A stretch of DNA of 62,897 bases, the filler included, from Reclinomonas americana ATCC 50394 (taxonomy: Eukaryota): assembly GCA_048213135.1 (NCBI GenBank). It is 11 parts of 11 records of this genome, joined end to end, with 100 filler letters (N's around TTAATTAATTAA, not from the genome) between each part and the next. Parts side by side here need not be neighbours in the genome. Positions count along the whole stretch, not along the records: positions 6,115 to 13,166 come from AFZH01019569.1; 10 more parts are not named here. The stretch is one strand, 5' to 3'. The notes below the pieces were generated by a model. That model was not told the origin of the DNA, did no database searches, and worked only from the letters and a program-made list of their open reading frames with translations. Within the stretch, counting starts at the first letter, position 1. The number at the start of each line of letters is the position of its first letter. Position numbers and translations under genes: made by a program. Positions 4,584 through 61,162 of this stretch are shown here, piece after piece.

Positions 4584-5958
4584 TTATTCCGCCTCACTTC
4601 CGCCACTCCCACTGCCACCTGCCGACGCCGATGCTCTCCTTCGTGCTCTCCGCACCGGTTTGGCTGCCCTTTCTCCGCTCTTGCTGGCCGATCCGCGCTC
4701 CGACTGCAACAGGAAATGAGTTGTTGGATGAAGAGAACGATGAGTGGCAAGCAACTGCAGCGGCGTACCGACTCCTCCCGCTTCATCCTCTTGCGTGGTG
4801 GTTCCGCGCTGTTCGATCGCATCTTCATGCGCTCCCGCTCCCGCTCCTTCAGCATCAGCAGCTTCTTCTTCTCACGACCGCGCAACGCCTTCAGTCCCTT
4901 CTTCTTCTTCTTGTGATTGAGCACGGGGGCGGAGGCGTCGGCCGACGACGCATCGTCGTCGTCACTGCTCGCTTCCGAATCACTGCGATGCGGCAGCTGG
5001 AGGACGAGCTTCTCCTGCTCCAGCTGCCAAGCGTATCTGCATGTCAGCAAGAGAAACGCACAGTTCGCGATCGCGCGAACGCCGATGCCGTGCCGTGCCC
5101 ACAAACCTTTTTTGCATAGCGCTCGCTGTTGACCGACGGCTTCTCCAGAATCAGCACCACACGCTGCATGTACAGAATGGGCAGGCCCGGCACGAGACGC
5201 ATCTCGGCACGAAAATCCGGGTCCTCAGTGGCCAAGAAATAGTGGTCTGGGTTGTTCTCGCCAATAATGCCCCGAATGCTGTCGGGCGCCGAGCGCGGCA
5301 CGACCTTCTTTGGTCCCTTTTCGCCTTCTCCCTTCTCCTCCTCCTCCCCATCCTCCTCCTCCTCGGCCTCTTTCTCCTTCTCACCACCTGCTGCTTCCTC
5401 GGCTGTCGGAGCACTGATGGGCCTTAGCCGCTGCGCATACCACCGCGCGTCGTTAAAGTCGGGACCGAGGCTACGCAGTTCCTGAACCACTTCACGCGTC
5501 ACCAGTGCGCGCAGGGAGAGAGAGCGAGTCAAGGATCAAACACACAAGCGCGGACGCAGAGAAACGAGGGAGGTGTGGCGACAACAAAAAAGGATATCCA
5601 ACTGCACGCGATCGCCGAGCGCCTTCTCAATCATCTCCTGCGGATCGTTCTTGGTGCGCAGAATGGCCACGATGAAGCTCCCGTCCACTGCGCAAATGAC
5701 GTCAGCAACTCTTCGCGCTGGCAACACCCCACCACCATAATCGTGGACGCAGAACAAGGTGCCGTTGAGCAGACGACACGAGCGGCCTCGGTGCACGTGC
5801 GGCGTGTGTGTGAATGTCTGTGCATGTGCAACGTCGCCCGCCCCCTCCCCGCCTCGCCCACGCACGCAACAGAGAACGCGATACGGTGCGCGGAAGCCAT
5901 AGACTGTGCGGAAGAAGAGCACCGTGCGGCGGAACTGTTTGAGTCGCTTGTAGCGCAT
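4584..5958 (-). CDS. UTP23: rRNA-processing PIN-domain protein UTP23 (Fcf1 family)
   Basis: MRYKRLKQFRRTVLFFRTVYGFRAPYRVLLDGSF and HYFLATEDPDFRAEMRLVPGLPILY...LEKPS, followed by a basic C-terminal tail. Confidence 0.88.
5505..5597 (-). other. U12-type (minor spliceosome) AT-AC intron in UTP23
   Basis: On the minus strand: 5' site ATATCCTTTT, branch-like TCCTTGAC (5528-5535) and AC terminus. Removal gives LGDRVQL-V-VTREVVQELRSLG in frame. No AG acceptor is available before the next exon. Confidence 0.85.
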
Positions 5959-6014: not shown

Positions 6015-6114
6015 NNNNNNNNNNNNNNNNNNNNNNNNNNNNNNNNNNNNNNNNNNNNTTAATTAATTAANNNNNNNNNNNNNNNNNNNNNNNNNNNNNN
6101 NNNNNNNNNNNNNN
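6015..6114. other. Artificial contig-joining linker N44-TTAATTAATTAA-N44
   Basis: Identical 100-nt linker with stops in all six frames. It recurs at 13167-13266, 22481-22580, 32144-32243, 41747-41846, 44271-44370, 48098-48197, 53760-53859, 57312-57411 and 61019-61118. Confidence 0.98.
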
Positions 6115-6468
6115 TTATATGGTTGCTCGCTGTTACATTTTGTTCTGTCCACCCCGACTGTTAGAACCGTTACACCCGTGTCCGGAAAAATTTCTTTTCT
6201 CGACAACGGCGAATCACTGCCGGGAAAGGAAAAAAACACCGGAAAGCGCACCGCGTGCGCTTTCGATAGATGCCTTTTCCGTGACATGATCAAAAAATTT
6301 CGCGGCGCACCACTCGACGTAAACTTTGTGACCGCCGGCTGACGCTCTCAGCACCCAGCACCCCCTCCCTCTGCCGTGCGCGATCGTCGCAGGACAAGGT
6401 GAGCAAGCCGTGTACCCGACTTGTTTCACACGTTGCGGTGTTGTTGTGCGTCGGCACATGTCTGCCCC

Positions 6469-9400
6469 ATGTTTGCGTCCTCTCTCTGTGACCAACTTCT
6501 CTCCCGTTCTGCGCGACCTGTGACACCCCTCATCGTGCCGGCACGTTGCCGAAGGACTGTAGTGGTGGTGTACCCGCCTGAAACTCGTCGCTTCTGTCTC
6601 CTTCATGTGGTGTGGGTGTCACATTTTGTTCATCACGACTGGTGACTGATCAAAGTGCTGACATACAGATGCACCATGACGAGCTGCCTGCTACGGCCCA
6701 AGAGCTTCTCCACGACACAGGCACTTGCATGTCACTCTGTGATGTGTGCGAGCGCGCTGTCGTCGTCGGATCACGGGATCAGGCTGCCACAGCGGCCAAA
6801 CGCTTGACAGCCATGGGCATCGACTGCGCTCCTGGGTTCCTCGTCAGCTCGTCGCACTTGGAGCTTCTGGACGTCTACAACGATGTCGACACCCACCAGG
6901 AGTTTGCGCATGCGTCTGAGTGTGGGCTCAGCGCCGATGAGATCGAGTCATTCCTTGCCGTCGACTCGACAGGAATCCTCTCTCTCCGTGCCGGGCGCAC
7001 GCTGCCGAAGGTACCGCGTGCACGTGGAGACTCTGTGGCGTCGGCACGGTCCCCACTGGCGCAAGCCAAGTTTGTGGCTGTCCACGCCCATACACTGGAA
7101 ATGGCGGTTGCACGGGCCGTGGAGAGGTCCGAGCGCAATGAGGAAGATCCTTCTTCACCCGTGATCTGCTCGTCGTGCAAAACGAGGATGTATCGGGAAG
7201 CGCAGTATGCCGTGCGATGCGCGTGCGTCACTTGCCGCTGCTTCGTCCCAGCGAGCCGCCGACCACCGGACTCTCTCAAAGGAGGGCAGCGAGGACGGCG
7301 CAAGCGACATCTCCAGACAGTGCAAAGCACGCGACATCGCAAGAGGCGTCGGACAGGTGCTGCCACCTTCGATGCTGACGACGAGGATGACGATGACGAA
7401 GCCGAGGGCGTTGGCGGCGAGGGCGGTGACGAAGCCGAGGGCGTTGGCGGCGAGGGCGGTGACGACGCCGTGCGCAGGTCCACGTCGGCAGAACTCGCCT
7501 TTGTTTTCGGTGCCGCCGTACGCACGTTTGGTACGTATACTGTTGACCTGCTGCAGCCGCCCCGTCCAGCTGTCGTACAGCTCGCTTCTTGTGCTCACTG
7601 CTGCGTCGCCTCCACCCTTGCCAGGCGACGAAATACACATCGTCACCGAGGACGGTGTCGATGTGTTCTGTTCAAGTGACTGCAAACGCGAGTTTCTGGC
7701 AGCGCGTTTCCCTGCCGCCTCCAACCCCCGCATTCGCCGCCGTGCCACGGCTGCAGCTGAGAGCGACGCAGAGAGTGGTGACGATGCCGAGGCTTCAATG
7801 GCTAGTGCGGAAGACTCGGATGGCACAGGCGCGATGGTCGAGGATGAGACTGGTGGAGAGGAGGACGAGGAGGATGAGTCGTCGGTATGCTTGGCTCGTG
7901 TACGATGCTCGCTTCGCTGATCACTGGTACCAATGCATTTCTTGGTGCGCGCTTCTCTTGTCGCAGGATGAAGCTGTCTATCCCAATCCTCGACTAACGG
8001 CAGTGGACACAGCCGCGGTGAGCCGCCGGCGGCGCCGCAAGCCACTGGCTGCGATGAAGCCGGGCACCGAGGCGAGAATTATCAGAGAGAGAACGAGGGA
8101 GCTCCGACGTTCAATGAACAGTTTCGCGGAGAGGGTGCGGCACTCTCATGAACAGCGGCAGCAGGCACCTGCCGATGAAGAGGACGATGCTGCTGCCGCG
8201 CACCGAAGCCGTCTATCATTCGCTCTCCAGCTGGTGAGTTGCCGGCCTGCGCAGATAATATATGCCTTGTTCGGCAGCGCAGCTCAACTCGTGCCCGCCC
8301 TACATGCACACGCACAGATCGAAACCATGGACAAGAATTTTGTGCGACAGATACTCAATCCCGATCCATCCGAGTCGTTGGGCGATTCTGTGCCGGCAAT
8401 TGAGTACGAGAAACTGCGCTCGTTGCTCGTTGTCCTCGCGCAAGATCTGGTCAAGCTCACCCAACGAGTGAACTATGTGAACGAGGCGCTCGCCGTGTGC
8501 CGCAAGCAAGTACGCCAACTGTCAGACAAGTTATCGGGCATTGACAAGGCGAGGGAGCGCGCGATATATGACAAGGAGCATGGCATGACTTTGGAAGAGG
8601 GTGCGTGCTGACAGTCGCGCACACCCACACTCCTCGTCGTGATCATCGCCATTTCTGACGCCTGCTCTACAGCGGTGCATTTCCGCTATCAACTTCGGCT
8701 GCCTTGGTCTCTGTACACGTACATGCGAACTCTCCGGGCCATTGGTTTCTGTCTTCCGCCGGTGAAGCGTCTATTCGAATACGAAAAGTCTCTCCTGCCG
8801 CAACTGGGTGCAGTCGCAGAGAAACGGATCATCATCACCGACAGGAAGACAGCAAGAGCGCCGCCGAAGGTGGAAGAGATGCAACTCGCGTTTATCCAAC
8901 GGTTCCTGCAAAGGTTTGTCGGTAAAGCAGAATGATATCAGATGTCGCGAAGTCGTCACATGCATTTGTCAAATCTGGAGACTTACACTGCGTGCGCACT
9001 CGCGCCGCACATGTACAGGAGTGTGCTCGTGTTACGTTCGCCAGGAGGTGACGGAGGCGAGCACAGTGCACAGTGTCGCGCTGAGGAGTGCACCCATGGA
9101 CTCTTCGCTCTCGCAAATAAGGTGGTGGGACTGCGACCTCATCCCTCTGGCCGTTTGCAGCTGCGCATTGCCGCGGATTCTGGGATTGTTCCATCGAGAA
9201 CCTCCGCCTGTGATCTGCAGGACGACCGTGGCATGCGCACACTTACTGTTGAGACTCAATTACGCCTCCTTCAACTTTTCATCTTGACGGTAATTGGGCA
9301 TCCAACCACTCATTCGCCGGAGTCTGTGGCACTCATTGCAGTCGCGTTGATGTCGTCGGAGTCACTGGCTACCACCTTCGGTGCCGTGCGGTCGCTCCCG

Positions 9401-11777
9401 TGGACAGCTTGGGCTGACGCTTGGGAGAGGCATGTCAATGAATGCGCGCTACTGAGGAGCCGGTTTCCACAGGGTGTACAATACTTTATCGGGGGAGACC
9501 TCAAGACTCTCCAGGCGTTCCTCGGCCTGGGGCACTGTAGCTACTGTCCTTTTTGTTTGGCGAGGCACGCTTTGCTGTTTTGCGGAACATCTGCGTCGGC
9601 GAAGATGTGGTTCATGAGGTTCACTCGTCGCAGTCGTGATCTTGCCACGGACATGCACAACAGAGAGTACACCGTTGACTGCTGCTTTGACTTCGTGCTG
9701 AACTTGGACGAGATTATCGATGGGAAGCGGCACTGTACCCGAACGCTGTCGACGGCTCACGATGTGCTGCGACAGTTTCTGCTGTGGCAGGAATCTCTGC
9801 AAATGCCCGGTGCAACTAAAGATGACGACGACTACGCTAGATTCCGCAGCATTAGTGCTGTTGGCCCTGGGAATACGGCATGGCGTGCATTGAAGACAAT
9901 CATTTCATTCCCCGCGGATCACGCAGAGCGTCTCAAACTCTTGCTGTCTTCGTTTGTGCCTGATCAGCTGCATCTCGAAATCCGCGCTGCTGAGGCAGTG
10001 TTCGGAAAGCTGATGTCCCTCGGCTACATGACGCAGAAGGGCACCAATGCTCGTGTTGAGGGGCAACCTTGCATTCAGACAACTGTCGATGGCAGACCAA
10101 TGCCCAACACGTCGTACTTCAACAAGGCAGAGGAGTACGCACGCGACGCAACGGCTGCTTTCAAAGACTTGTGTGGCAAGAGGAACCATCTGCGGTACGT
10201 ATACGCCTTTTGTCTACACCAAGATCCATATCACTGTTCCATGTCTGTCACTCACTCGACGCCGACACTTAAGCACTTGCATGCACGCACGCACAGGTTT
10301 AAGGTGGAAAGTAAATTATCCGCGCGAGGGAGTGGGCCAGGTGGCTCCGGATCAGGCACCTTCAGGAGAGTAACAGAGGCCACTCGGGGAAGCAATCTCG
10401 CTGGTGCCGCACTCGACAATCTCCTCGAAAATTTCGAGCAAGAGAAGGTATGCCTGCCGTCGTGCATCGCGCTGTCCGTGTATGTATCCATTGTCGGGCG
10501 AATACATGTGTAACCATGGCCACAGGTGAAGGAGAGGATTATTGCACCATTCCTCAGCCACGAACCAGTACTTGTCGAAATATGTGCTACTTTCCTATCG
10601 GCTGTCAAATGCTACCGCAAATTACAGTGGCATGTGCGCCATGGTGACTGTAACGGCAACGAGTGGCCTTGCAACTACACCGAACAGCAACTGCTGCCGA
10701 GGCTGGAGCGATTCAAGAATTTGGGCTCGCAATTCTACAAGGCAGTGTTTCGTGCACACGAAGTCATCGGTGTCAATCCTGGTGAATTCATCTCCACCAG
10801 TGTTCACTTATAGTTGCGAGCAGCGGTTTCATACACGTTGTGTTTGTGGCGGTGGACGAACACTCACTGCGGTTCCTTCTGTTGTCACCTGCAGTCTGGA
10901 CCACCTGCCGCAGTTTTGCGTTGACAAACGATTTGCCTTCAACACACACGCACATAGCCAGTACGGGAATGAGCAGAAAGTCAAGCAGTGTCGGCCTGTG
11001 TTTGTTCACGGGCCGAATGCATCTCCTCCGACTCGCGCTGAAGAGGTCGACCACACTGATTGCTATCGTAGCAGGCTGTTGCATGAGGCTTTCTACTGTT
11101 CACTCGGTAAGCATCATATCCGTGTGTTTGCTCGTATGCAAGTAATCCGTGTACGTATACCAAGTGTGATTCTTGCGCACATGTTCAGAGAGCCCGCTAG
11201 TACCTGCAGCGCTAGCTGGCGTCGGCGTCGGTCATGATCGCATGATTATCAAGACCTTGCGCGACGATACGAGTCCTTATATGCCCTCGAGCTCGCGACA
11301 GGCCGATCGCGACAAGAACTCGGACGATGAGGACTTGGATTCATGGCGGGAGGCAGCTCAGTGTGAGCACGATGCGAGGCAGGAGGAGCTTGAGCGGGCT
11401 GCGGAGCGACATAGTCTTGCACTCTCGTCTGTGCATGTACCGCAAACACATGTGCACGCGGCCACCGATGGAGAAGATCTTGAGGACGCCGAGGCGCCGG
11501 CTCCCGAAGTCGACGCTGTACCGCAAGGGAAGCGCAGTTTCGTTTGAGCGATTCGCTGCATCGAACCTTATTGGTGTCTGCTCTGACATGTACGCGCGCT
11601 GCGGCTATCTGCGCAGTGCGATCCAGCATAAAACACCAGATTGCGCATAGCATGGCGATTCTAACAACGACATGTCCGGAAGTCGTGCCCCAAGTGGAGA
11701 AGAATCGGGAGACGCGACAGAAGAATCGTTCAAAGGAGTTGATGGATCTGGATCCGGAGCAACAGGATCCACAGTGA
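6469..11777 (+). CDS. RAG1-like DDE transposase/recombinase, 12 exons, ~1467 aa
   Basis: Phase-compatible GT-AG exons: 6469-6609, 6669-7477, 7557-7884, 7967-8233, 8318-8600, 8673-8913, 9019-10194, 10297-10447, 10526-10812, 10895-11106, 11189-11536, 11617-11777. Motifs occur in RAG1 order: RRKPLAAM..RERTRELRRSMNSFAE, LPPVKRLFEYEKSLLP, LRIAADSG, GGDLK..CPFC, PDQLH, VHLYLDHLP, SQYGNEQK. The first and last exons are less certain. Confidence 0.85.
7395..7460 (+). repeat. Perfect 33-bp tandem duplication (DEAEGVGGEGG x2) in the acidic linker of the transposase
   Basis: GACGAAGCCGAGGGCGTTGGCGGCGAGGGCGGT repeated twice, in frame. Confidence 0.95.
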
Positions 11778-11860
11778 GATGGCATTCAGCGAGTTCATCA
11801 TCTTTTCCAATACAAAAAACACACGCCAAGAGACTACACACCACATACACATCACATCTG

Positions 11861-13030
11861 TCAACGGGCCTTCGTCACCACTCGGAAAGACACGAGGAGA
11901 ACCCTCGGCTTCGCCTTGTACGTCAGAACAAGTGGCGCAGAGTCGTCCACAGCACAAACGGAGAACTTGGATTGCAGCAAAAACCACTGCCGTCCGAGTG
12001 CGGCTTCCAGAGCATCGCTGGACGCCGGGCTCTCCACTTTTTCGCGCAAATCGCAGCATGGCCACCTAGGTCGGTACGTCTCCTCGGCATCTGGAAGCGC
12101 ATCGCGGAAAAGATGCAACACGGCGGCGAACGCGACACAGTTCAACTTGAAACCACGATCAGGCGGGGCGAATTTCACCTTCAACACCTGGCGCAGCACC
12201 CGCATAAAGCGCCGCTTCAGGTCGTTTGACAAGTCTTGGAGCAGGGCATAGTGATGGCGGTTCGCCTGGAGGGTGGGGAGAGAGAGAGGGAGGGGGGGGG
12301 TGGACGACATTAGCCCGCCGGCACGTACGTATCGCGACTGGCAGGCACGCTCACGTAAAGAATAGCCAAGAAGAGATGATAGGTGCCTTCCCTCGCGTCT
12401 GGGCCAAACGACACTCGCATCACTGCATTGGGAAGGGTATGGGGGGCTGGGGCAGGTCGTAACAAGACTGATCTTGTGGGGATGGACTCACGCACGTTCC
12501 ATGGGGTTGCAGGCGACTGTGACGTCGGTGTTCACAGCCACTGCCGCAGTGGCCACTCGCTTCGCCGTTGGAGTGCGCCTCACGCTGGGGCGTCGGCGCG
12601 GTTGACGCGCTTGGACTCGGCGGGCGTCGTCGATTTCCATCGATATCGACGCGCCGCTCTCATCGTCACTCTGATTGTGATGGAGATCACTCGCGAGTTC
12701 ATCATTGGCGGAGACCACAGGCTCGAGCCCCGCATGTGGTGCCTGGGAGAGAGAGGGAGAGAGGGAGAGAGGGAGACAACGAGGAAGTGAGTTCGCGCGC
12801 TGATGTCATTCAACACAAATCTTCCGTCACCAACTCACGCGCGCAGATGCTGCTTCGTCGCTGCCACGAGATGAAAAGCTTGAGCGTCGTGACCTACTGC
12901 GACGGGGCACACGCGCTGCTTGCGGAAGGCCGCGTGAGTCACCGAGATCAAACTCGGCGAAGCGGCGTCGCAGCTGGGCGGCGCGCTGTTGTGTCCAGCC
13001 CTGCCGTCTCGATCTAGTCGCACGCTCCAT
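11861..13030 (-). CDS. Unknown 303-aa protein, 4 exons, convergent partner of the RAG1-like transposase
   Basis: Exons 13030-12839, 12742-12496, 12422-12355 and 12265-11861, with GTGAGT/GTGCGT/GTGAGC donors and pyrimidine-rich CAG acceptors, join into a 912-nt open frame. The N-half is basic/disordered and the C-half is predicted globular. Confidence 0.72.
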
Positions 13031-13271
13031 GAATTGAGCTACACTCTGGCGAAGCGGCGGCGCGTGTGCACAAGGAATGACCGAGAACGACGTGCGTCAC
13101 TAGAGTGGGGTGCAATTTTCAGGCGGGAAATGACCGAAAAATTTCCCATTGGAGAGCAACGGCATANNNNNNNNNNNNNNNNNNNNNNNNNNNNNNNNNN
13201 NNNNNNNNNNTTAATTAATTAANNNNNNNNNNNNNNNNNNNNNNNNNNNNNNNNNNNNNNNNNNNNTCTTT

Positions 13272-16272: not shown

Positions 16273-19200
16273 ATGTATCAGTATTATGAGAGCGAAGACG
16301 GCGATGGCGACGATGCCGTGAGCCTGTGGTCCTCTTCCTCTTTCGCCTCGTCATCGTCATCGTCGGCGGCAACACTGACCTTTTGTTGCGCACCAAGGGC
16401 GACGTTTCTGTCAAAACAGTCTCTGATCGCCTGACATGCATGCACAGATGAGAGCGGTGAGGTGATTGCATCGCCAGCTGCTGCTGCTGCTGCTGCTGCT
16501 GCTGCAGAGCCAGTGTCATCACCGCCGCCAACACCACCATTGCGCGAAGAAGAAGCAGAAGATCGACATCGTGATTGGAATGCCGAGTTTCAGGTGGCGT
16601 TGGACGCGTTGCTGGCCGCCGTGCGACCGGTGCAGGCCACTCCCGATGAGCATGTGCGGCGCTTGGCGGCGGTGCATCGTGTGGTGACGGCGTTCCGGGA
16701 GGCGGCGCGGCAGCATGCGCGGACGATTGTGTTGGAGCTGGCGGTGGAGCCACCGGAGGCGCGTTCGATTCCTCCGGCGCGCTCTGTGGGTGGTGTGGCT
16801 GGTGGTGTCAAGGTGCGACGTCGTTTCTCTATTGTTTTTTGGCTTGAAGTGCTGATGGATGGCGCTGGGAGCACAGTACATGGTCGACAACATATTCTTC
16901 AAGCTCGTGCGCGACCACACAGGTATGCTGTATGGCAGTGATCGTGAGGTGAGTGTGGTTGCTGTGCTGACTGTCGCTGAAGTGCTTCCTGACCATCTCG
17001 TGCGTGTGTACAGGCCATGAAGGCGGCCAGTCAAGAGATGACTGTTGCGTGTGGACTGGATCGCCTTTGCCCGCAGCGACGTGAGACAGTGGACTGACTG
17101 CTGCGCGTGTGCAGGGAATGGCGTCGTACTTGCTGGCTAATGTGTCACGCTTGCGCACGCCTCTCATGACCATGAGTTGCGTGGTGGACAAGGAGTAGGT
17201 TTCGTGCTTGTTTTTCTCTGACTCTCTCTCCTGCAGTCGACTTTCTCGGATATCGCATCATTGCATCTACGGTGTTGCCGCTCTCCGGCGACACACTGGT
17301 GTACGGCTCTGGTGACGGTGGCCGTACGGTGTTGGCCGACCCGGAGGTGTCTGCGTTGATGGAGGAGGCCGCGTGCTCCATCAATCTCAAGCGGCACGGC
17401 GCTGGTCGCGAAGGTTCGGATCGTTGCCCGTCAGCGCGCAGTCACTTGCTAACCTCCTGCACAGGTGTTCCACTCTGGGCTCCGTGCGACATTGAAGTGC
17501 ATCGCGCACTCGACGGGCGGTTCTACGTCTTGGACACGGCGTGCGTCATTGGTTTCTTCGCTGCGAATCCATGTTGTTGTTGGCACTCACGCCTCTCGAC
17601 CATGCCAACACAGGCGTGTTTTCCCACCAGTGCCATCCCTCGATGGAGGTACAGTGCTCCTCCTTTGTGCCTCGTCTCTTGCCGTGCTGACTCTGTGCGG
17701 CAGAGAATGTGTCGCTGGTGCGTGTGCCGGCGACGGTGACCGACGACGGCCTCGAGGTGCTGCCGTCGGTGCCCAGCCGAGACATCGGTCGCGTGATCAG
17801 TGCACTCTTTGGTAGCACCGAGCGAGCTGAGCGCGTGGCCGTCACCCGCGACACACTGGTGTTTTTTGACCGACAGGCTACCGTCAAGGTGAATGCCTAC
17901 AGCCGTTGTGCAGCATGGATGCATAGCACGTGCACCTCATGTGTATGTTCTGGTGCAGAACGACCGTGTGGCCACGCTGCTCAACATACCAGCTGAGCAT
18001 GCAGTGCGAGGGCTCGCTTTGGTGGTCACTCGGTGAGCACAAGAGTTGGTGCGCCATGGTAACGGGCGGTAGACTCATACGCTTTCATTTTCAGCAATCC
18101 TGGCCAGCATCTGACCCACTTGTTCCGGCCCGAGTTTGTCAGCTCCAATCCAGTCCCGCTCTCCTCCGATGCCTACACAGGTGCGCGCCATACCACTCGT
18201 GTGTGTGTGAAAGAGAGAGAGAATCTGCATGGGCTCAATCACTATATAATAATAGGCTTCGGAGCACATCAAGCTGCCGAGAACAATGCTGAAGTCGCGG
18301 AGGCACGTCGGCGTTTGCTGGACACGGTGATTCCGCAGCTGGTCGCCGATATGGCTTCCGGGCGAGTGTATCCCACCAACAGGTGCGGTGTCTCTCACTC
18401 CGTGGGAACAAAATCACGTTGCCGACGCATGCCTCCTCCAGCGAACAGCTCCGTGCGGCACTGCATCAACGCGGAGTCAACATGCGCTACATGGGAGTCA
18501 TTCGCACCATGCTGGATCATCCTGTTGGCTCCGACCACCCCATGCGTGTCGAGCTACTCACCGAGATGCTTGCGCGTCTGGCCAAGACCCAGTTGCGAGA
18601 TGAGCTTCGACGTGTGCATAGCAGCGACATTCAGGTGTACAGGTGCGTTTGTGCATTCCTCTCTGTGTCTTTCACTTGGCGCAGACGAGCTAATCTGGGC
18701 TTCCTCGCACCAGGCGCCACATTGTTGCGTTTTTCAATCTGATTTTTGGAAGGTCGGCGGCCTCCGACTACATGTGGCAAGGTGCGTAAGACGCAATGTG
18801 TGTGGCATGTCCCACGCATCACTCGCAGCTAATGCACTTACCAGAACGACTCTACTTTGCCGTACTGGAACGATACGGACGTTTCGGGACGGTGTTCACG
18901 GAGCTGGATCAGACTCGGCATCTGCATGTCGACATGCGTCTCAACACCAAGGTGGGTGTCGGTGGCGCCTGTTGTGCTTCTTTTGTTGCTGACAGACTGC
19001 TGCAGCTGCCTCGACTGCTGGATGCACTCGAGTATCACTGTGGCGTCGTGTTTTCGCATCGTGCACACCAGCTCCTCTCCAGTGTGACGCCAGAGACGCC
19101 CACTCCGCTGGCAGAGGAAGGTGTGCGACCAAGGCGTTCTTTTGGTAGTCTCTGTGCGCACGCTCACCGCAGTGTTGCGCAGATTTGCTGTTGGTGGTCC

Positions 19201-22480: not shown

Positions 22481-22580
22481 NNNNNNNNNNNNNNNNNNNN
22501 NNNNNNNNNNNNNNNNNNNNNNNNTTAATTAATTAANNNNNNNNNNNNNNNNNNNNNNNNNNNNNNNNNNNNNNNNNNNN

Positions 22581-32143: not shown

Positions 32144-32243
32144 NNNNNNNNNNNNNNNNNNNNNNNNNNNNNNNNNNNNNNNNNNNNTTAATTAATTAAN
32201 NNNNNNNNNNNNNNNNNNNNNNNNNNNNNNNNNNNNNNNNNNN

Positions 32244-41746: not shown

Positions 41747-41846
41747 NNNNNNNNNNNNNNNNNNNNNNNNNNNNNNNNNNNNNNNNNNNNTTAATTAATT
41801 AANNNNNNNNNNNNNNNNNNNNNNNNNNNNNNNNNNNNNNNNNNNN

Positions 41847-43587: not shown

Positions 43588-44370
43588 TAGTAGAACGGAA
43601 GGATGAAAAATGGGATGTAAAAAGATGTGTAATCAAAATTGCAGCACGAGTGGGGAAAGCGGAGCCGGTCCCTGCATTTCCTTTTCACGGTCGATATTGA
43701 CAGTTTCGACCAGCTTGGAAAGGAAAATCTCGTGAAATGTCGCGATACCGGCCAGCCAATCTCTCCCTCTCCACTCCCCGCAACAAGCCACGCCATGCAG
43801 CCACCCCCACCAGCTCAACCTAACCGAATCTGACTTTGACCGCCACCAGCTCCTTTGGCGCCTCTCAAATTTGAGGCGTTCGTTGTCCATGGACAGTTCG
43901 AAGCGCAGCTCTCTCGCGAGCAGTTTCGCGCCCAAAACATTTACTTGCCTTTCGCGAGAGCACCTTGTTGCCTGTGTGCTTGTGTGTGTGTGTGTGCACC
44001 GCATCTCCTTCCACACTCGCTCTCCCCCTCTCGCACCCCCCCACCCTCTCGCTCTCTCTCGTCTTTACACACGCAGCAGAGAGAGTGTCTGTTACTTCTT
44101 CGTCTTGCTCTGTTTTGCAAGTTCTTCCGCGTGTCGCGTCTCGTCTCGTCTCGACTTTAGTGTGCGAAAACCCCCCAACGAAAGATGGCCGACGTGGCAA
44201 TTGCCTACGATGCCCCTGATCGCCCACGGTGAGAACGAATACAACAAACATGTGATATTCGTGTGTGTGTNNNNNNNNNNNNNNNNNNNNNNNNNNNNNN
44301 NNNNNNNNNNNNNNTTAATTAATTAANNNNNNNNNNNNNNNNNNNNNNNNNNNNNNNNNNNNNNNNNNNN

Positions 44371-48097: not shown

Positions 48098-48197
48098 NNN
48101 NNNNNNNNNNNNNNNNNNNNNNNNNNNNNNNNNNNNNNNNNTTAATTAATTAANNNNNNNNNNNNNNNNNNNNNNNNNNNNNNNNNNNNNNNNNNNN

Positions 48198-51100: not shown

Positions 51101-53759
51101 GAACACACACCATCGATGCTGCTGGCCTCCGGTTCGCACATGAGATGGTACTCGTGGAACAAGTTGGCAAAGGCGACCTCGGGTGGCAGGGCCGGGAAAC
51201 TCCCACTGCTTGGTTCTTCCCGCTGCAGACACACACACACGCGAGAAGAATTGGCAACGAGGGATATTATGAGGAAAAATGCAGAGCGGGGCAAGCGCAC
51301 CGGTGCACTCTGCAACAGAGACATGCTCATGCGCGCCGGCAGCGACTTCATGTACTCGGGCGAAGCCACATCAGCGAGCTGGTCAACCATCGACGTCGAC
51401 GACTCTGGGCAAACAAGGCCAGTGAGTCACCTGTTCCGTGTGCGACCCACGGCAACACAACGTCGCAACTGTGCTTGCCGCGCGGTACGCGTTTAGGACT
51501 CCCCACAGCAGCTGCCGCCGCTGTGGTGGCTGACGCAGCAGCCGTGGATGCGGCCGACGACTGTCATGACGAGCGAGTGAGCAACGACCATAACACCGAC
51601 AGATAAAACATGTACGCAACAATACCCGGCACCACCTCGGGCTCCGCGGCGGTGCAAAACTCGACGCACAGACGAATGACCCGCTCCACCATGTCGTGGC
51701 TCGCCCACTCGACAGCGAAATCAGCACATCGATGCAAGTCGCGCAGCCACAATTCGCTGGTGTTCTCCACTGCAACCACACGGGTGAGCTGGTGGACAAA
51801 GTGTGTGTAAGCAAAGAGGGGGTCGCAACTGAGTGGACGCCACTGTGGATCCTTGGCCAGCGACTCGATCACGCGGAACAGGAGCGCAAACTGCAACTCA
51901 TTTTGCTTGTACAGGAGTTGTGCGCGCCCGGGAGACCGGTCGTTGACCTCGCTCAGCTGTAGCAGCGAATTCAAGTACAGGCCGACCAGCACCTGTGCGC
52001 AACCCATGAGAACACGAGAAGGGAGAGAGAGAAGGGAGAGAAGGAGTGGGAGAAGGGAGAGAGAGAAGAAAGAGAGAGAGAAGGGAGAGAGAAGGGGAGA
52101 GAGAAGGGAGAAAGAAGTGAGTGAGAAAGCACATAGACGCTGACATCTCATCTCCCTCGTCAGTTACTTTTGCACACACACAAACGCGCGCACACACAAC
52201 GAGAGAAAAAATGAAAGGAACAGAAAGCACACAACGCTGACATCTGCATCTCTCTCGTCAAGCACATTAACTCACACAAACGAGAGAGAAGGGAAAGAGA
52301 AAGAAACAGAGATAGCACATAAACGCTGACATCTGCATCTCTCCTGTCAAGCACATTAACACACACAAATGAGAGAGAAGGGAAGGGGAAAGTGACAGAG
52401 AGAGCACACAAACGCAGACCTCTGCATCTCACCTGTCAAGCACATTAACACACACAAACGAGAGAGAAGGGAAGGGGAAAGAGACAGAGAGAGCACACAA
52501 ACGCAGACCTCTGCATCTCTCCTGTCAAGCACATTAACACACACAACCGAGAGAGAAAGAGACAGAGATAGCACTCAACGCTGACATCTGCATCTCTCTT
52601 GTCAGTTACTTTACACCTTCAAACGAGAGAGAAGGGAAGAGAAAGAGACAGAAAGCACACAAACGCTTACATCTGCATATCTCTTGCATACATATTTTCA
52701 CACACTCACGCACACGCACGTGAGCGGCAACATACCTGCAGTGTCCAGCACGCGCCACGACGATGACCGAGGAAATGCAGAGCTGGTGAGCAGCGCGGCG
52801 AAACGCCGGCTATCTTGTCCGTGGCCAGCGCTGCTCACACCACCGCTCTGAGGACAAGCAAACAATAGTGCGAAAAAGACAAGCCACACACACCAACAGC
52901 ATGCAGCCACACGTTGGCGCGCGGGTCGAGTGCATACACTGTCGAGGACTTGAACGGGGGAAGCACAGATGTTGCCACATGTCCGCGCATACACAGCCAG
53001 CCGCGAATCTGCAAGGCATACAGCTGCGGGGCACGAGGCGGGGTGAGACGGCAATTTACAGCACGCGCAAGAAAATTCTCTGCCACACACCTCCCGGTAG
53101 AGAGCACTCGGCGGGCATTCGCAGAGACAACTGAGCACCACCGACGACAATGGAGTGCCGACCATGTGGGGAGCATCGGGTCGCAGGGTTGACACGTCGA
53201 CTGCAAAAGGGAATACGGCATGTCACACGGAGTGCATCACAGCATGAACTCACATAATTAGAGAGAGAGAGAGAGAGAGACATGCACACACACGCATGCG
53301 GAGAGAGAGAGAGAGAGAAACGCATGCGGAGAGAGAGAGAGAAACGAGCGCATGTACTCAGACGCACACATAGGCATACCCAGCTCTGCGCACACACATA
53401 CACACACAAAGAGAGAGACAGGCAGTAGAGAGACGCACGCACGCACGCACACACACACGCATGCACACACACGCACACAGAGGTATATCCAGCTCTATCG
53501 CTCTCTTCCTCTTTCTCTCTCTCTCTCTCTCTCAGGCATACCATCATCCTCCTTCAAACTCAGATGGCACATGACGGCCAAAATGCGTTGCTGTAGAGGC
53601 GATAATGACAAGTAGCAGGTGGCCACGGCATCGGCCGGGGTCACCATCTTGTCAATGGTGTCTAATCGGTGCAGCACACTGCCACTCATGTGCGACAAGA
53701 GCAGGTGACGGGAGAGCAGGCTCTGCACAAACGAAGCCGATCCGTCGTCCATGGAAAGC
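48198..53759 (-). CDS. Large helical protein with TPR (kinesin-light-chain-like) repeats, partial
   Basis: Many short exons with TPR-like units (CLESRQRHLGLTHASVAEALL, YAKALHNCAVILFARGRFEDCQDMFRQC). The exon structure was not fully resolved. Confidence 0.55.
52136..52690. repeat. Intronic minisatellite, ~7 copies of a ~75-100-bp unit
   Basis: Recurring AACGCTGACATCTGCATCTCTCCTGTCAAGCACATTAACACACACAAACGAGAGAGAAGGGAA core. Confidence 0.9.
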
Positions 53760-53859
53760 NNNNNNNNNNNNNNNNNNNNNNNNNNNNNNNNNNNNNNNNN
53801 NNNTTAATTAATTAANNNNNNNNNNNNNNNNNNNNNNNNNNNNNNNNNNNNNNNNNNNN

Positions 53860-54232
53860 GCTTTTCTCTTCTGTGTGTGAGTGTGTGGTTAAGGCAAAGG
53901 ATTAGGCATCGTCTGCATCGCCTGCAAGTCGCTCTCTCTCTCTTCTCTCTCACCTGCACACGCCCGCACGGCCATTCTCCACCCGGCCACATTTCTCCGC
54001 AACCCTCCACTCCCACTACTCCTCGGCGCCGTCGACCCCAGCGTCGGCCTCGCACCTCCTCCACCACGCTGCGAGCGCGGAGACAGCAGTGGCGTGTTGT
54101 ACGTGTAACTCCCCGCGCCGCCGCGAGGTGACGCAGGTGGCGACGAGTCTGACAGAGACACTGACAGGCCAGTGGCGCCCACAAGAGAGGCCGCAGAGGC
54201 AAGCTGCTGAGGGAGGTGGCGCTGCTCCGTCA
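53860..54232 (-). CDS. 5' fragment of unknown Ser/Gly-rich protein
   Basis: MTEQRHLPQQLASAASL... open frame heading to the contig edge. Confidence 0.4.
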
Positions 54233-54340
54233 TTGCACACGAGAGGAGATAGAGAGAGAGAGGGCGGAGTGTGTGTGTGAGAGCGGAATGTGTGCGTCTT
54301 TCTGTGTGTATGTGTGTGGTGGAGAGAGAGAATGTGTGTA

Positions 54341-54770
54341 TCAGAGAGAGGGGCGTGTGCTTGCGTGCGTACGTGTGTGTGTGCGTGCGTACGTGTGTGA
54401 ATGACCAAGACTGGGGACAGTGCGTGATTGAGGACACGAGGACGGTATTTCTTCTTGTTTTCTTTTGTTTTGTTGTTTCTCAAGGTGTGTGACGATTGTA
54501 TCAGAGAGAGGGGCGTGTGCATGCGTACGCGTGTGCGTGTGTGCGTCAATGAGCAAGACTGGGGACAGTGAGTGATTGAGGACATTTCTTGTTTTTTATT
54601 TTCTTTTTTGTTTTTTCTAATGGTGTGTGACGATTGTATCAGAGAGAGGGGCGTGTGCGTGCGTACGTGTGTGTGAGCAAGACAGGCAGACAGGGGACAG
54701 TTCGAGATTGAGGACACGAGGACGATTCTTGTTTTTCATTTGTTTTTTTCGATGGTGTGTGACGATTGTA
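54341..54770 (+). repeat. Three tandem ~130-160-bp units ending in the CRIPT start sequence
   Basis: Units 54341-54500, 54501-54638 and 54639-54770 each run TCAGAGAGAGGGGCGTGTGC...GGGGACAG..GATTGAGGACA...GGTGTGTGACGATTGTA. Confidence 0.9.
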
Positions 54771-55363
54771 AGAAGAAGTTGAAGCAGGTGATTACGCCGG
54801 ATCCGTTTGCGCGGCGTAGTGGTGGTGCCAGTGGGAGTGGGAGTGGGTCGACTGCAGCTGCGCCTTCTGCGGCGGCGGCTGCGCGGTCGGCCAAGAGTGA
54901 GAAGGAGCAGGCGGGTGGGCGTAAGCGCACGAATATGTTGTTGGCGGCGAGGAAACAGTGAGTTCGTGGTGTGGTGGAAGGGGAAGGAGGGTGAGAGGTG
55001 AATGTGTGATCTTTTCGCGCTCTTTGCTCCCTCTCTTGTTGCTGTTGTTGTGTTCTTCTTTCTGTTGTTGTTGTTGTTGTTGTTGTTGTTGCATTTCTTC
55101 TTGTGCCTGTGCTTCCACATCGTCAGCATCTTCATCTGGGTCATCTTCATTCTTTACTCTTTTCCTCTCTTCCTCCTCTCTCTCTCTCTCTGCTTTCTCT
55201 CTCTCTCTCTCTTGTCGGCTGTTGATTCTGTTCCTCTTTCTGTTGTTGTTCATCTTGTTCTTCTTCATCTTGTCTCTGTGCTGCATCGTCATCATCAGTC
55301 TTCATCTGGATCATCTTCGTCATTCTCCATCCTGTTGTTCTTCTTCTCTCCTCCTCCTCTCCG

Positions 55364-55404
<41 letters not shown>

Positions 55405-56296
55405 TCGTTCATTGTCTGGGGGTCCAGTTGTGATTTTGACCCCTTGGCTTCCGTTGTCTTCGTTTTACCTTCTTTGTGCTCTTCTCGTCCTTCTTCCTCC
55501 TCTTCTTGCTCTCTCTCCTGTCTCTCTCTGGCTGCTGATTTGTGATGTTCTGTTGACTTGTGGCTGCAGATCGGTGCCGTATAATGGGCGTTGCAAGAAC
55601 TGCAAAGTGAATCTGCCAGCGGAGGGGCAGTACTGTGCCACGTGTGCGAATGAGAAGGGTGCGCAGGGTGGGCGGCAGGGAGGGAGAGAGATAGCAGAAG
55701 AAGCAAGTCAGCTTGAGTGAGATGAGAAGCGAACAGCAGGTGGTGGTTGTCGTCTGTGCGACTTCGTGTCCATCTTGTTTCTGATGTCGTTGAGAGAGAA
55801 GAGGAGAGATTCTAGTCAGCTTGAGCCGTGTGAGAGGCGAACGGCAGGTCATCTCTGCGACTTCCTGTCAATCTGGTTTCTGTGGCCGATGAGAGGCAGG
55901 CAGAGAGAAGCAATGCGAGGGTTGTCGTCGTCGTCGTCTGTGCGATAACTGGTTTTATAGAGAGAAGAGGAGAAGCACGTCAGCTTGGGTCTTTTCCTTG
56001 TCTGTTGTCCGTGGTGAGGACGGCGACGAAGACTGAGTGTCTCCGATCCATAGTCATGCGAGTGGGGCTTCCTTCTCCTTCCATATAGTCAGCGCTGATG
56101 ACAGGTTTAGTGCAGTTGCCAAGCATCTTAATTTCCTTGTTGCGCAGGTGTGTGCGCTCGGTGCGGAAAGCAGATCATGGACATGAAATACGCGGGCACG
56201 ACAGGCACCAGTTACGCTGCCTCCACACCAGCTTCTCATTGCCATCGCCGCAACTCAACCACATGTGCATTCACAGATCCTTACTACAAACAATGA
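54752..56296 (+). CDS. CRIPT: Cysteine-rich PDZ-binding protein CRIPT
   Basis: Exons ~54752-54958, 55570-55658 and 56148-56296 give MVCDDCKKKLKQVITPD...GGRK...CKNCK...YCATCANEKGVCARCGKQIMD...YKQ*. Confidence 0.88.
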
Positions 56297-56388
56297 GACG
56301 CGCGCGAATATACACAAAGCTGTGCGTCCTATATATATCGAAATCACCGTTGTCCATCAACAGTTGTTCCGAGGGAGCGAAGAACATC

Positions 56389-57055
56389 ATGTCTCCCTCG
56401 CACCTCCCACTCCTCCTCCTCCTCTGCCTCTGCACCACACTGCTGCTCCTCGCAGAGCACACACACGCCAGCAGCCACCGACTCCGCGGAAACACACAAC
56501 AGCAACAGGTCACACACGCACACACACACACACTCTCTCACACACTCTCACTCTCTCTCACACACACACACAGTCACTCTCCAACACCGCCTCCACCTCG
56601 CGTTTCCTGTGGATCACCGATGTCCACTACGATCAAAACTACTCGCCCACTGCTGCAGTCACTGCTGATTGCCGCAACAACTGTTGCGTTCAACATGACA
56701 GAGAGTGCGTGAGAGTGAGAGAGAGCATTCTGTGTGAGAATGCAATACCGAACATGCATAACTCCTCTTATGTGTTCTCGCGCTCTTTTATCGCTCTCAT
56801 TGTGTTCTTTTTTCTCTTTTTCTCTGAGTAGCGGGTACTCCTGGCGAGCACGAGCAGTACAATGTTTTTCCGTTTGAGCGATCGCGTCGGACTGACATGA
56901 TGGCGGCGACTCGAGTTGCGCACTCTGTCTCTGTGTTTCCTTGTTTCTTACTTTCTTCTCTCTCATGTCTGTGTTTGCAGTTCACCAATCCGACTGCGTC
57001 GGCGGCGTGGGGTCGGTACGGGTGCGATGCCCCTGCTGCGCTCGTGCAGTCTGCG
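56389..57055 (+). CDS. Acid sphingomyelinase-like/SMPDL3 metallophosphoesterase, 3'-partial
   Basis: Signal peptide, RFLWITDVHYDQNY and WGRYGCDAPAALVQS. Confidence 0.8.
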
Positions 57056-57411
57056 TTGCGTTTATTGTGGTTGTTGTCTGCTTCGAGCGCTGGGCAATAC
57101 AACTGCTGACACTTCTTGTTCTTGTTCGTGTTCTTCTTCTCCTCCTCCTCGTTCTTTCTGTTCTTCTTCTTCTTCTTCTTCTTCTCCTCTTCCTCCTCTT
57201 CCTCTCTCCTCTCTCCTCTCTCCTCCTCCTCCTCCTCCTCCTCCTCCTCCTCTCTCCTCCTCCTCCTCCTCCTCCTCCTTCTTCTTCCGCCTCCTCCTCC
57301 TCCTCCTCCTCNNNNNNNNNNNNNNNNNNNNNNNNNNNNNNNNNNNNNNNNNNNNTTAATTAATTAANNNNNNNNNNNNNNNNNNNNNNNNNNNNNNNNN
57401 NNNNNNNNNNN

Positions 57412-58003: not shown

Positions 58004-59465
58004 ATGGGTGAGTTGTCTTTTTGGCTTGCTGTTTTCCACCTTACCGCGCTCACTGTGCGCCTCGGCGATGCAGCGTCTTCTGTTGCCAAGACGGCGTCGA
58101 ATGGAGACGCAAAGAAGGGTGAGGACAAACCGGCGGCGCCAGTGACTGGCTACGATGCCGCTGTGCAGTTTGCCATTGGTACCTTTGGAGGCATTGGCTT
58201 CTGGCGTGTGTTCCGGCCATTCGTGGAGTCCCACACGCACGCGCACAGTCCAGTCATGGTACGTGTGTTCGAGAAGTACACGCGCACACAATGCAACGGC
58301 GACGGCGGACGGTCACTCTGCTGTGTGTGTTGCTGCAGATGTTCCCGATTCTCAAGTGGCTGTTGCCCGCGATCTTCACCCCGCTCTACGTCATCATGGT
58401 CTTCTATCACAAGCGGGTACGTATTCTGCAGCGGCGACAGCGGCGACCGCAGTTGTTCACGGATCGCAATCGCCGCAGGTTCGCATGCAGAAGAAGCCAG
58501 AGGATGCACCGGTGATCAACCCGGGTCTCTGGCTGGCCCGATGGAACCTCTTCCTCACCATTCTGTCGTACATTATGATGACGGGCCTCCTGGAGGGAAT
58601 GGTGCGTGAATGTGGCGAACCGTTGAAGTGCAATTTGTCGGTGCTCACCGCGTCGCGCTACACAGTACGACGGGTACATGAAGCAGCCGGAGCTCGGCGT
58701 GCTTACGTTCCTGTGCACCGACGAGTGGTGGGACAATGGCATGCTTATGTTCAACATCTGGCTGTTCACGTACTCCAAGGTGCGTAGCGCATGCACAGCT
58801 CTCTCACTCCCCTCTCCTCTGCTGCTCATGTCTGCCGTTGTTTTGTTTGCTTGTACACCGCAGTACATTGAGTTGATCGACACGGTGTTCCACGTGCTGA
58901 AGCGCTCGGAGATCTCCTTCCTGCACTGGTACCACCACACCACCGTGCTGCTGTACACGTGGTACATGACCACGTTCCGTATGTCGCTCGGTTCCATTTT
59001 CGCCACGGTCAACAGTGCAGTGCACGGCATGGTGCGCTCGTCACCGCATTGTGCGCTGTCTGCTTTTGTGCTCTGTTTTTGCTGAGGCGCCACACACGTG
59101 CACACAGATGTACGCATATTATTACCACTCGTCGGTCGGCCGCCGTCAGACATATGGCGTGTGGGTGACGCGGTTCCAGTTGACGCAAATGGGCGTCGGT
59201 CTGGTCTCTACTGCGGTGTGGGCCTACTACCACATCTCCGACAACAAGACGTGCCCGTCGCCCACGGATCTCGAGTGGCCGGTGACGCTGGGTGCCTCGG
59301 TGGCGCTGTACGGCTCCTACTTTGTGCTGTTTGCCCTGTGCGTACGCGTGTCTCCTGTTCTCACGTTACGCACGTACTGACAATCTGCGCAGGTTTTACA
59401 TTGATCGATGGATCAAGAACGCGAAGGAGGCCAGCGCCGCCAAGGCCAAGAGCAAGACAGCATAA
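58004..59465 (+). CDS. GNS1/SUR4 (ELO) fatty-acid elongase
   Basis: WNLFLTILS, FTYSKYIELIDTVFHVLK, FLHWYHHTTV, NSAVHGMMYAYY, TRFQLTQM, LYGSYFVLF and a K-rich C-terminus. Confidence 0.93.
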
Positions 59466-60968: not shown

Positions 60969-61162
60969 TAGAAGTAGTAGTGTGTGTGAGAGAGGAGGAG
61001 GAGGAGGAGAGAGAGAGGNNNNNNNNNNNNNNNNNNNNNNNNNNNNNNNNNNNNNNNNNNNNTTAATTAATTAANNNNNNNNNNNNNNNNNNNNNNNNNN
61101 NNNNNNNNNNNNNNNNNNACATCTGCAACCTCCCTCCTCTCTTCTACTCTCTCTCTCTCTCT

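Follow-up and report, generated by a model that had tools for sequence, protein, structure and literature searches.

Gene structure at the locus

We analysed a stretch of 62,897 nt (the window) from the genome of Reclinomonas americana ATCC 50394, composed of 11 contigs of 1.8–9.6 kb that are joined via ten artificial 100-nt linkers (N44-TTAATTAATTAA-N44). One of these contigs, 7,052 nt long (6115–13166) and bounded by the linkers at 6015–6114 and 13167–13266, carries a genuine host gene of several exons, apparently intact, on the + strand, encoding a protein of about 1,365–1,470 amino acids (aa) whose central part holds the residues of a candidate D-D-E triad and zinc site in the order in which they occur in RAG1. 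Because the linkers glue separate contigs together, the order of genes across them says nothing about synteny, and only 6115–13166 counts as real gene context.

Exons were built from open frames on the + strand and joined at GT..AG sites, so that the gene model is a prediction from sequence alone. Ten exons spanning 6669–11547 give a coding sequence of 4,098 nt and a protein of 1,365 aa, with the terminal stop as the sole stop codon. All nine introns are of the form GT..CAG and measure 72–105 nt. Reading through them meets an in-frame stop in five of the nine and shifts the frame in two more. The remaining two, at 8234–8317 and 10195–10296, are multiples of three and stop-free, so frame alone does not demand their removal; retention of either would leave the frame open. 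GC content at codon positions 1, 2 and 3 is 0.64, 0.47 and 0.62, a coding-like pattern.

The preliminary description of this locus had reported an intact, intron-containing gene of 12 exons encoding about 1,467 aa without internal stops. In silico, the intact and intron-containing character of the gene holds, as does a stop-free chain of ten exons (1,365 aa); the two extra end exons have no independent support. They are possible additions: a 5' exon at 6469–6627 (+) would start at an ATG at 6469 in open frame and end at a donor near 6615/6627, with several in-frame GT donors fitting the acceptor at 6668, and a 3' exon at 11617–11777 (+) would be joined to a donor at 11536. The product would reach 1,461–1,468 aa if both optional ends were included.

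The model might instead be partly an artefact, representing either a decaying pseudogene or two merged genes whose open frames were favoured by a GC content of 57%. The exon joins are predictions from sequence, many long spurious open reading frames (ORFs) occur on both strands of this GC-rich DNA, and two of the nine introns could stay in place without closing the frame. However, a stop-free chain of 4.1 kb, nine GT..CAG introns that are consistent and alike in size, and the coding-like distribution of GC among codon positions make such an artefact very improbable.

The N-terminal third of the protein contains Cys clusters, basic runs resembling nuclear localization signals (NLS), acidic repeats and a coiled-coil-like stretch, and the protein looks nuclear. 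In exon 1 (6669–7530, aa 1–287), CxxC pairs occur at aa 24, 167 and 186, together with a basic NLS-like run and acidic sequence in which a 33-nt tandem duplication (7386–7451) encodes an acidic/Gly repeat; Pfam returned nothing for this exon at E ≤ 1 (two noise matches, E = 1.6 and 4.2). Exon 2 (7625–7884), for which Pfam gave no match, shows by eye only an FCS-type zinc-finger-like motif, followed by an acidic tail. Exon 3 (7967–8233) includes a basic R-rich run, and exon 4 (8318–8600) has by eye a coiled-coil look. In exon 5 (8673–8913), which had no Pfam match at E ≤ 10, the motif EKSLLP (8783–8800) was equated in the preliminary description with the region that precedes the RNase H domain of RAG1.

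Candidate catalytic triad and zinc site

The 391-aa core exon 6 (9019–10194) contains the first candidate catalytic residue, D691 (9176–9178), the second, D798, within GGDLK (9497–9499), the motif CSYCPFC with C814 and C817 (9536–9556), and PDQLH (9959–9973). It is followed by exon 7 (10297–10447), after the intron at 10195–10296 that could be retained. Exon 8 (10526–10812) carries in its final part H1174 (10805–10807), the first His of an Hx4H motif, and ends at the weakest of the nine donors, GTTGCG. Exon 9 (10895–11106) supplies the second His, H1179 (10902–10904), and the third candidate catalytic residue, E1202 (10971–10973), and exon 10 (11189–11547) encodes an acidic C-terminal tail up to the stop at 11545–11547. 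All of these exons lie on the + strand. The coordinates that had been given for the motifs (D at 9176, D at 9497, CPFC at 9545–9556, PDQLH at 9959–9973 and E at 10971) are all correct, and the motifs are present in the spliced protein in the RAG1-like order that had been described.

In mouse RAG1, the catalytic residues are D600, D708 and E962, and a single zinc site is formed by C727/C730 with H937/H942, according to PMC4914335. The two candidate Asp residues are 107 aa apart, compared with 108 between D600 and D708; the second Asp precedes the CxxC by 16 aa (19 in mouse RAG1); H1174/H1179 has the same Hx4H form as H937/H942; and the second His lies 23 aa before the Glu (20 in RAG1). Between D691 and D798, the hydrophobic pattern comprises, by eye, three strand-like runs, then a long helix-like one and a fourth strand that terminates in GGD, an order of strand-strand-strand-helix-strand that would fit an RNase-H fold.

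A language-model feature search of the ESM Atlas with exon 6 placed RAG1 clusters among its closest neighbours: nine of them (RAG1_RNase_H, ZnC2 and ZnH2) stood among the 30 nearest, with scores of 0.90–0.91. The other 21 carried no name, so that every named cluster (9 of 9) was RAG1 and none belonged to the CACTA/Mirage/Chapaev (CMC) transposases. Exon 1 of the gene, run as a control, reached a top score of 0.76 and retrieved no RAG1, which argues that RAG1 is no generic attractor for sequences of this organism. We regard the Atlas result as moderate evidence and not as a fully independent line, because the language model and the reader who first described the locus may have answered to the same short motifs.

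We infer that the central ~650 aa (aa ~550–1250) may represent a RAG1/Transib-type domain that descends from a DDE transposase and has diverged very far. In the proposed RNase-H-like fold, D691 would close the first beta-like strand and D798 would follow a fourth; one zinc site, composed of the CxxC (C814/C817) and the Hx4H (H1174/H1179), would anchor a long insertion, and E1202 would complete the triad with D691 and D798. By analogy with RAG1 and Transib, the protein may bind DNA as a dimer and perform metal-dependent nicking and transesterification. Its introns, together with the lack of inverted repeats on the contig and of another copy in the window, would then suggest a domesticated or fossilized transposase gene and not an active element. 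That reading, of a far-diverged RAG1/Transib-type DDE core within such a host gene, is tentative, and we give it somewhat below an even chance.

Database searches and competing explanations

Results from the motifs, from the searches and from the genomic context weigh against a RAG1/Transib relationship. The Hx4H motif straddles the junction of exons 8 and 9 at the weakest donor, and hence rests on a predicted splice. The composite pattern D..D..CxxC..Hx4H..E also arose in composition-preserving shuffles, in 166 of 5,000 under tight and 410 of 5,000 under loose spacing (3.3–8.2%), and it had been picked out post hoc within a very large scan. The distance from the second Asp to the Glu is 404 aa here versus 253 in RAG1 and 206–214 in Transib, as given in PMC1131882. 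SxxCxxC is conserved motif 7 of Kapitonov and Jurka 2005; a regular-expression search of the 1,365-aa model found no SxxCxxC, the site reading CxxCxxC with Cys in place of Ser. Neither the GRPR/K motif of the NBD nor the CCGHC motif of the C-terminal tail occurs in the 1,365-aa model; both typify members of the RAG1 family, though published members vary in both (PMC10462144).

Profile searches gave no formal match. The preliminary description had proposed a HMMER search with the Pfam RAG1 family; it recovered no RAG1 family for any exon, and none of five core-exon queries matched anything even at E ≤ 10. At E ≤ 1, nine of the ten exons matched nothing, and exon 4 had only a sub-threshold match to Sec10_N (E = 0.033). 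These negatives come from searches that lacked a RAG1 positive control and in which the HMMER filters drop most matches above E ~0.1; the presence of PF26100, PF26101 and PF26104, the RAG1 accessions named by the Atlas, in the copy of Pfam searched was not confirmed. No transposase family of any sort was matched in Pfam, a search made with no dedicated Chapaev profile, and NCBIfam returned sub-threshold noise only.

Sequence searches were likewise negative. With phmmer at E ≤ 10, exons 6, 8 and 9 and a 70-aa segment from D798 to the CxxC found no RAG1 or Transib among Protein Data Bank (PDB) chain sequences, which we take to include structures of both. Exon 6 had no match at E ≤ 0.001 among 1,835,955,588 representatives searched with phmmer; word-indexed searches yielded 6,515 candidates among longer proteins, none at E ≤ 0.001, and 6,431 among proteins of near length, none at E ≤ 10. 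Scanning metagenome contigs with exon 6 produced 94 pattern matches, of which tblastn confirmed none. AlphaFold2 was run on single sequences because there were no homologues for an alignment, and its predicted local distance difference test (pLDDT) scores were 35.0 for exon 6 (391 aa) and 36.9 for the sub-domain from D691 to the CxxC (191 aa), models too poor for assigning a fold.

Mutual identity of RAG1L and Transib proteins averages about 26% (PMC9435367), and the two were originally linked through BLAST and PSI-BLAST (PMC1131882). Because known members are detectable by BLAST at about 26% identity and no matches were obtained here, the protein lies outside known RAG1L/Transib diversity. 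As judged by its sequence, it is not a RAG1, RAG1L or Transib member as currently recognisable. The Atlas neighbours must also be read against the calibration of that tool, in which a recognition value of 1743 (below 2300) and 140–152 shared features (below 170) fall in the class 'chance or distant relative'.

These results bear on a second explanation, in which the gene encodes a fast-evolving nuclear protein, restricted to its lineage, that combines zinc fingers, a coiled coil and low-complexity runs of acidic and basic residues and has no relation to transposases; the RAG1-like motifs would then be post hoc chance matches, and the language-model match a false positive elicited by the same motifs. 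All formal homology tests were negative, the bare motif pattern recurs in shuffles at the frequencies given above, and the Atlas scores fall within that tool's weak range. The gene also behaves as an ordinary host gene: it is split by introns, faces a convergent neighbour and shows neither repeats nor another copy within the window. Moreover, orphan genes are expected in this poorly sampled lineage, because Pfam families were matched by just 4 of the 141 long ORFs of the window and the closest relatives of a conserved CLU exon are only 39–43% identical. On the other hand, nine RAG1 clusters out of nine named ones, with none for the control exon, would be unlikely for a random false positive, and four separate spacings match RAG1 to within 3 residues. 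We consider an unrelated protein almost as probable as the RAG1/Transib reading.

Genomic context and mobile-element features

The tetranucleotide composition of the gene's contig correlates with that of the other pieces of the window at r = 0.93, inside the range of those pieces themselves (0.59–0.97), so the contig is no obvious contaminant. Contamination was accordingly rejected as its origin. GC content is about 57%, ordinary split eukaryotic genes (CLU/eIF3_p135, Fcf1 and ELO) occur on other pieces, and the contig looks like part of the same GC-rich eukaryote.

We found no flanking inverted repeats on the 7-kb contig (6115–13166), and the heptamer CACWGTG, which resembles that of a recombination signal sequence (RSS), was not enriched in the window (22 sites versus 25.7 expected). 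No second copy of the gene was detected in the rest of the window, the lone tblastn match having E = 7.8. The contig extends 554 nt upstream of the ATG and 1.4–1.6 kb downstream of the gene, and transposon ends could be missed because so little flank is left.

Downstream lies a convergent, spliced neighbour on the − strand that ends at ~11861, about 85–315 nt from the stop of the RAG1-like candidate. Its exons reach ~12750 and it is incomplete on the contig. The last exon of this neighbour (11864–12265) has no significant family match and bears no recognisable likeness to kelch, PHD or RAG2; across its scanned exon pieces, we found neither kelch nor PHD nor any significant family, the only match being GST_C_2 at E = 0.07. 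On the limited evidence of this short contig, nothing points to a mobile element or to a RAG2-like partner. The possibility of an active, autonomous transposon copy was rejected given the lack of terminal inverted repeats (TIRs) on the contig, the spliced gene and the convergent, host-like neighbour.

A third explanation is a DDE transposase of another or new superfamily, for example of the CMC clade or of KDZ type, either domesticated or belonging to a larger element that ends beyond the contig. Several superfamilies share an RNase-H-like hydrophobic pattern about a pair of Asp residues, Cys/His clusters and a long insertion ahead of the Glu; GGDLK resembles Chapaev, as noted in the preliminary description; and the short flanks could hide transposon ends. 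Against this, no transposase profile in Pfam matched in any way, no relatives appeared among 1.84 billion representatives, the sole named Atlas neighbours were RAG1 and no other transposases, and a convergent spliced gene occupies the downstream space. Another superfamily thus seems decidedly unlikely.

Relation to known RAG1-like systems

RAG1-like proteins are not confined to animals. Tao et al. 2022 reported 786 RAG1L homologues from 173 species across Eukaryota, including one from the alga Aureococcus anophagefferens (AanRAG1L), an active RAGL transposon in a unicellular alga, and Transib in fungi, plants and bacteria (PMC9435367); Martin et al. 2023 also list a protist (PMC10462144). Because such cases are already reported, a RAG1-like gene outside animals would not be new in kind, and the novelty first attributed to this locus on that ground was overstated, RAG1L being published from unicellular eukaryotes (PMC9435367). 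A search of the literature on Transib with the names of protist groups found no gene of this description; it did not cover the supplementary species list of PMC9435367. If the homology is true, the new elements would be how far the sequence has diverged, its enlarged insertion, its nine introns and a setting like that of a host gene.

As a likeness to RAG1 and RAG1L, the protein has a candidate D-D-E triad (Asp–Asp distance of 107 versus 108 aa), with a CxxC after the second Asp and an Hx4H before the Glu at comparable distances, and RAG1 clusters are the nearest named ESM Atlas neighbours of exon 6. It differs in that no sequence or profile similarity was detected here, the insertion between the second Asp and the Glu is about 150 aa longer, neither GRPR/K nor CCGHC is present, and the contig holds no RAG2L neighbour and no TIRs. 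AanRAG1L likewise comes from a non-animal host, although it is described as single-exon (PMC9435367) versus the nine introns here.

A typical Transib transposase is about half the size of the protein described here. Transib transposases (for example, that of Helicoverpa zea; Kapitonov and Jurka 2005, PMC1131882) stand alone without a RAG2 partner and have a DDE triad, an unusually long distance from the second Asp to the Glu and a conserved CxxC after the second Asp; the protein resembles them in its candidate triad with a long second interval, in the CxxC and in the lack of a RAG2-like gene among the scanned pieces of its contig. In contrast, the distance from the second Asp to the Glu is 206–214 aa in Transib (PMC1131882) versus 404 aa here, the motif SxxCxxC is CxxCxxC here, the contig has no RSS-like TIRs, and there is no BLAST- or HMM-level similarity.

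CMC transposases are likewise large, multi-domain proteins with Cys-rich regions. The preliminary description noted a resemblance of GGDLK to Chapaev; in contrast, there was no Pfam transposase match, and no CMC cluster stood among the Atlas neighbours.

Should homology to RAG1/Transib be true, the gene would represent an independent and very old offshoot of the transposase family behind the V(D)J recombinase, one that survives intact as a host gene of a unicellular eukaryote. Known RAG1/Transib sequence space would grow, and vertebrate RAG would be joined by a second example in which to ask what tasks a recombinase of this type is recruited for. The gene would carry limited weight on the question of how RAG arose, because PMC9435367 already reports RAG1L from a unicellular alga and Transib from bacteria. 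A fuller version of the RAG1/Transib reading, which we consider unlikely, would be an intron-bearing and apparently single-copy recombinase of this type, beyond described diversity, with a zinc-domain insertion larger by ~150 aa and a large zinc-finger/coiled-coil N-terminus, independently domesticated in a protist for programmed DNA rearrangement or genome defence. If the homology is false, the locus would add one more orphan gene from a poorly sampled lineage.

Other genes and features of the window

Apart from the two that bound the gene's contig, the artificial linkers, which have no strand, lie at 22481–22580, 32144–32243, 41747–41846, 44271–44370, 48098–48197, 53760–53859, 57312–57411 and 61019–61118. 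The Pfam families matched by long ORFs of the window were CLU/eIF3_p135, Fcf1 and ELO. A CLU/eIF3 p135 (clustered mitochondria) gene has exons at 17176–17736 and 18293–18739 on the + strand (CLU, E = 1.4e-19; eIF3_p135, E = 2e-10), and the identity of 39–43% quoted above refers to the closest database relatives of its CLU exon. An exon fragment of an Fcf1-type rRNA-processing protein at 5047–5535 (−; E = 3.3e-12) and one of an ELO fatty-acid elongase at 58627–59082 (+; E = 1.3e-18) are both on different contigs from the RAG1-like candidate.

Tandem repeats elsewhere in the window occur at 52213–52683 and 54406–54770, with units of 89 nt (5.5 copies) and about 132–138 nt (2.2–2.4 copies). The piece at 53860–57311 deviates in composition (tetranucleotide r = 0.59) and has a strong AT skew, and a CTC microsatellite is found at 57184–57311.

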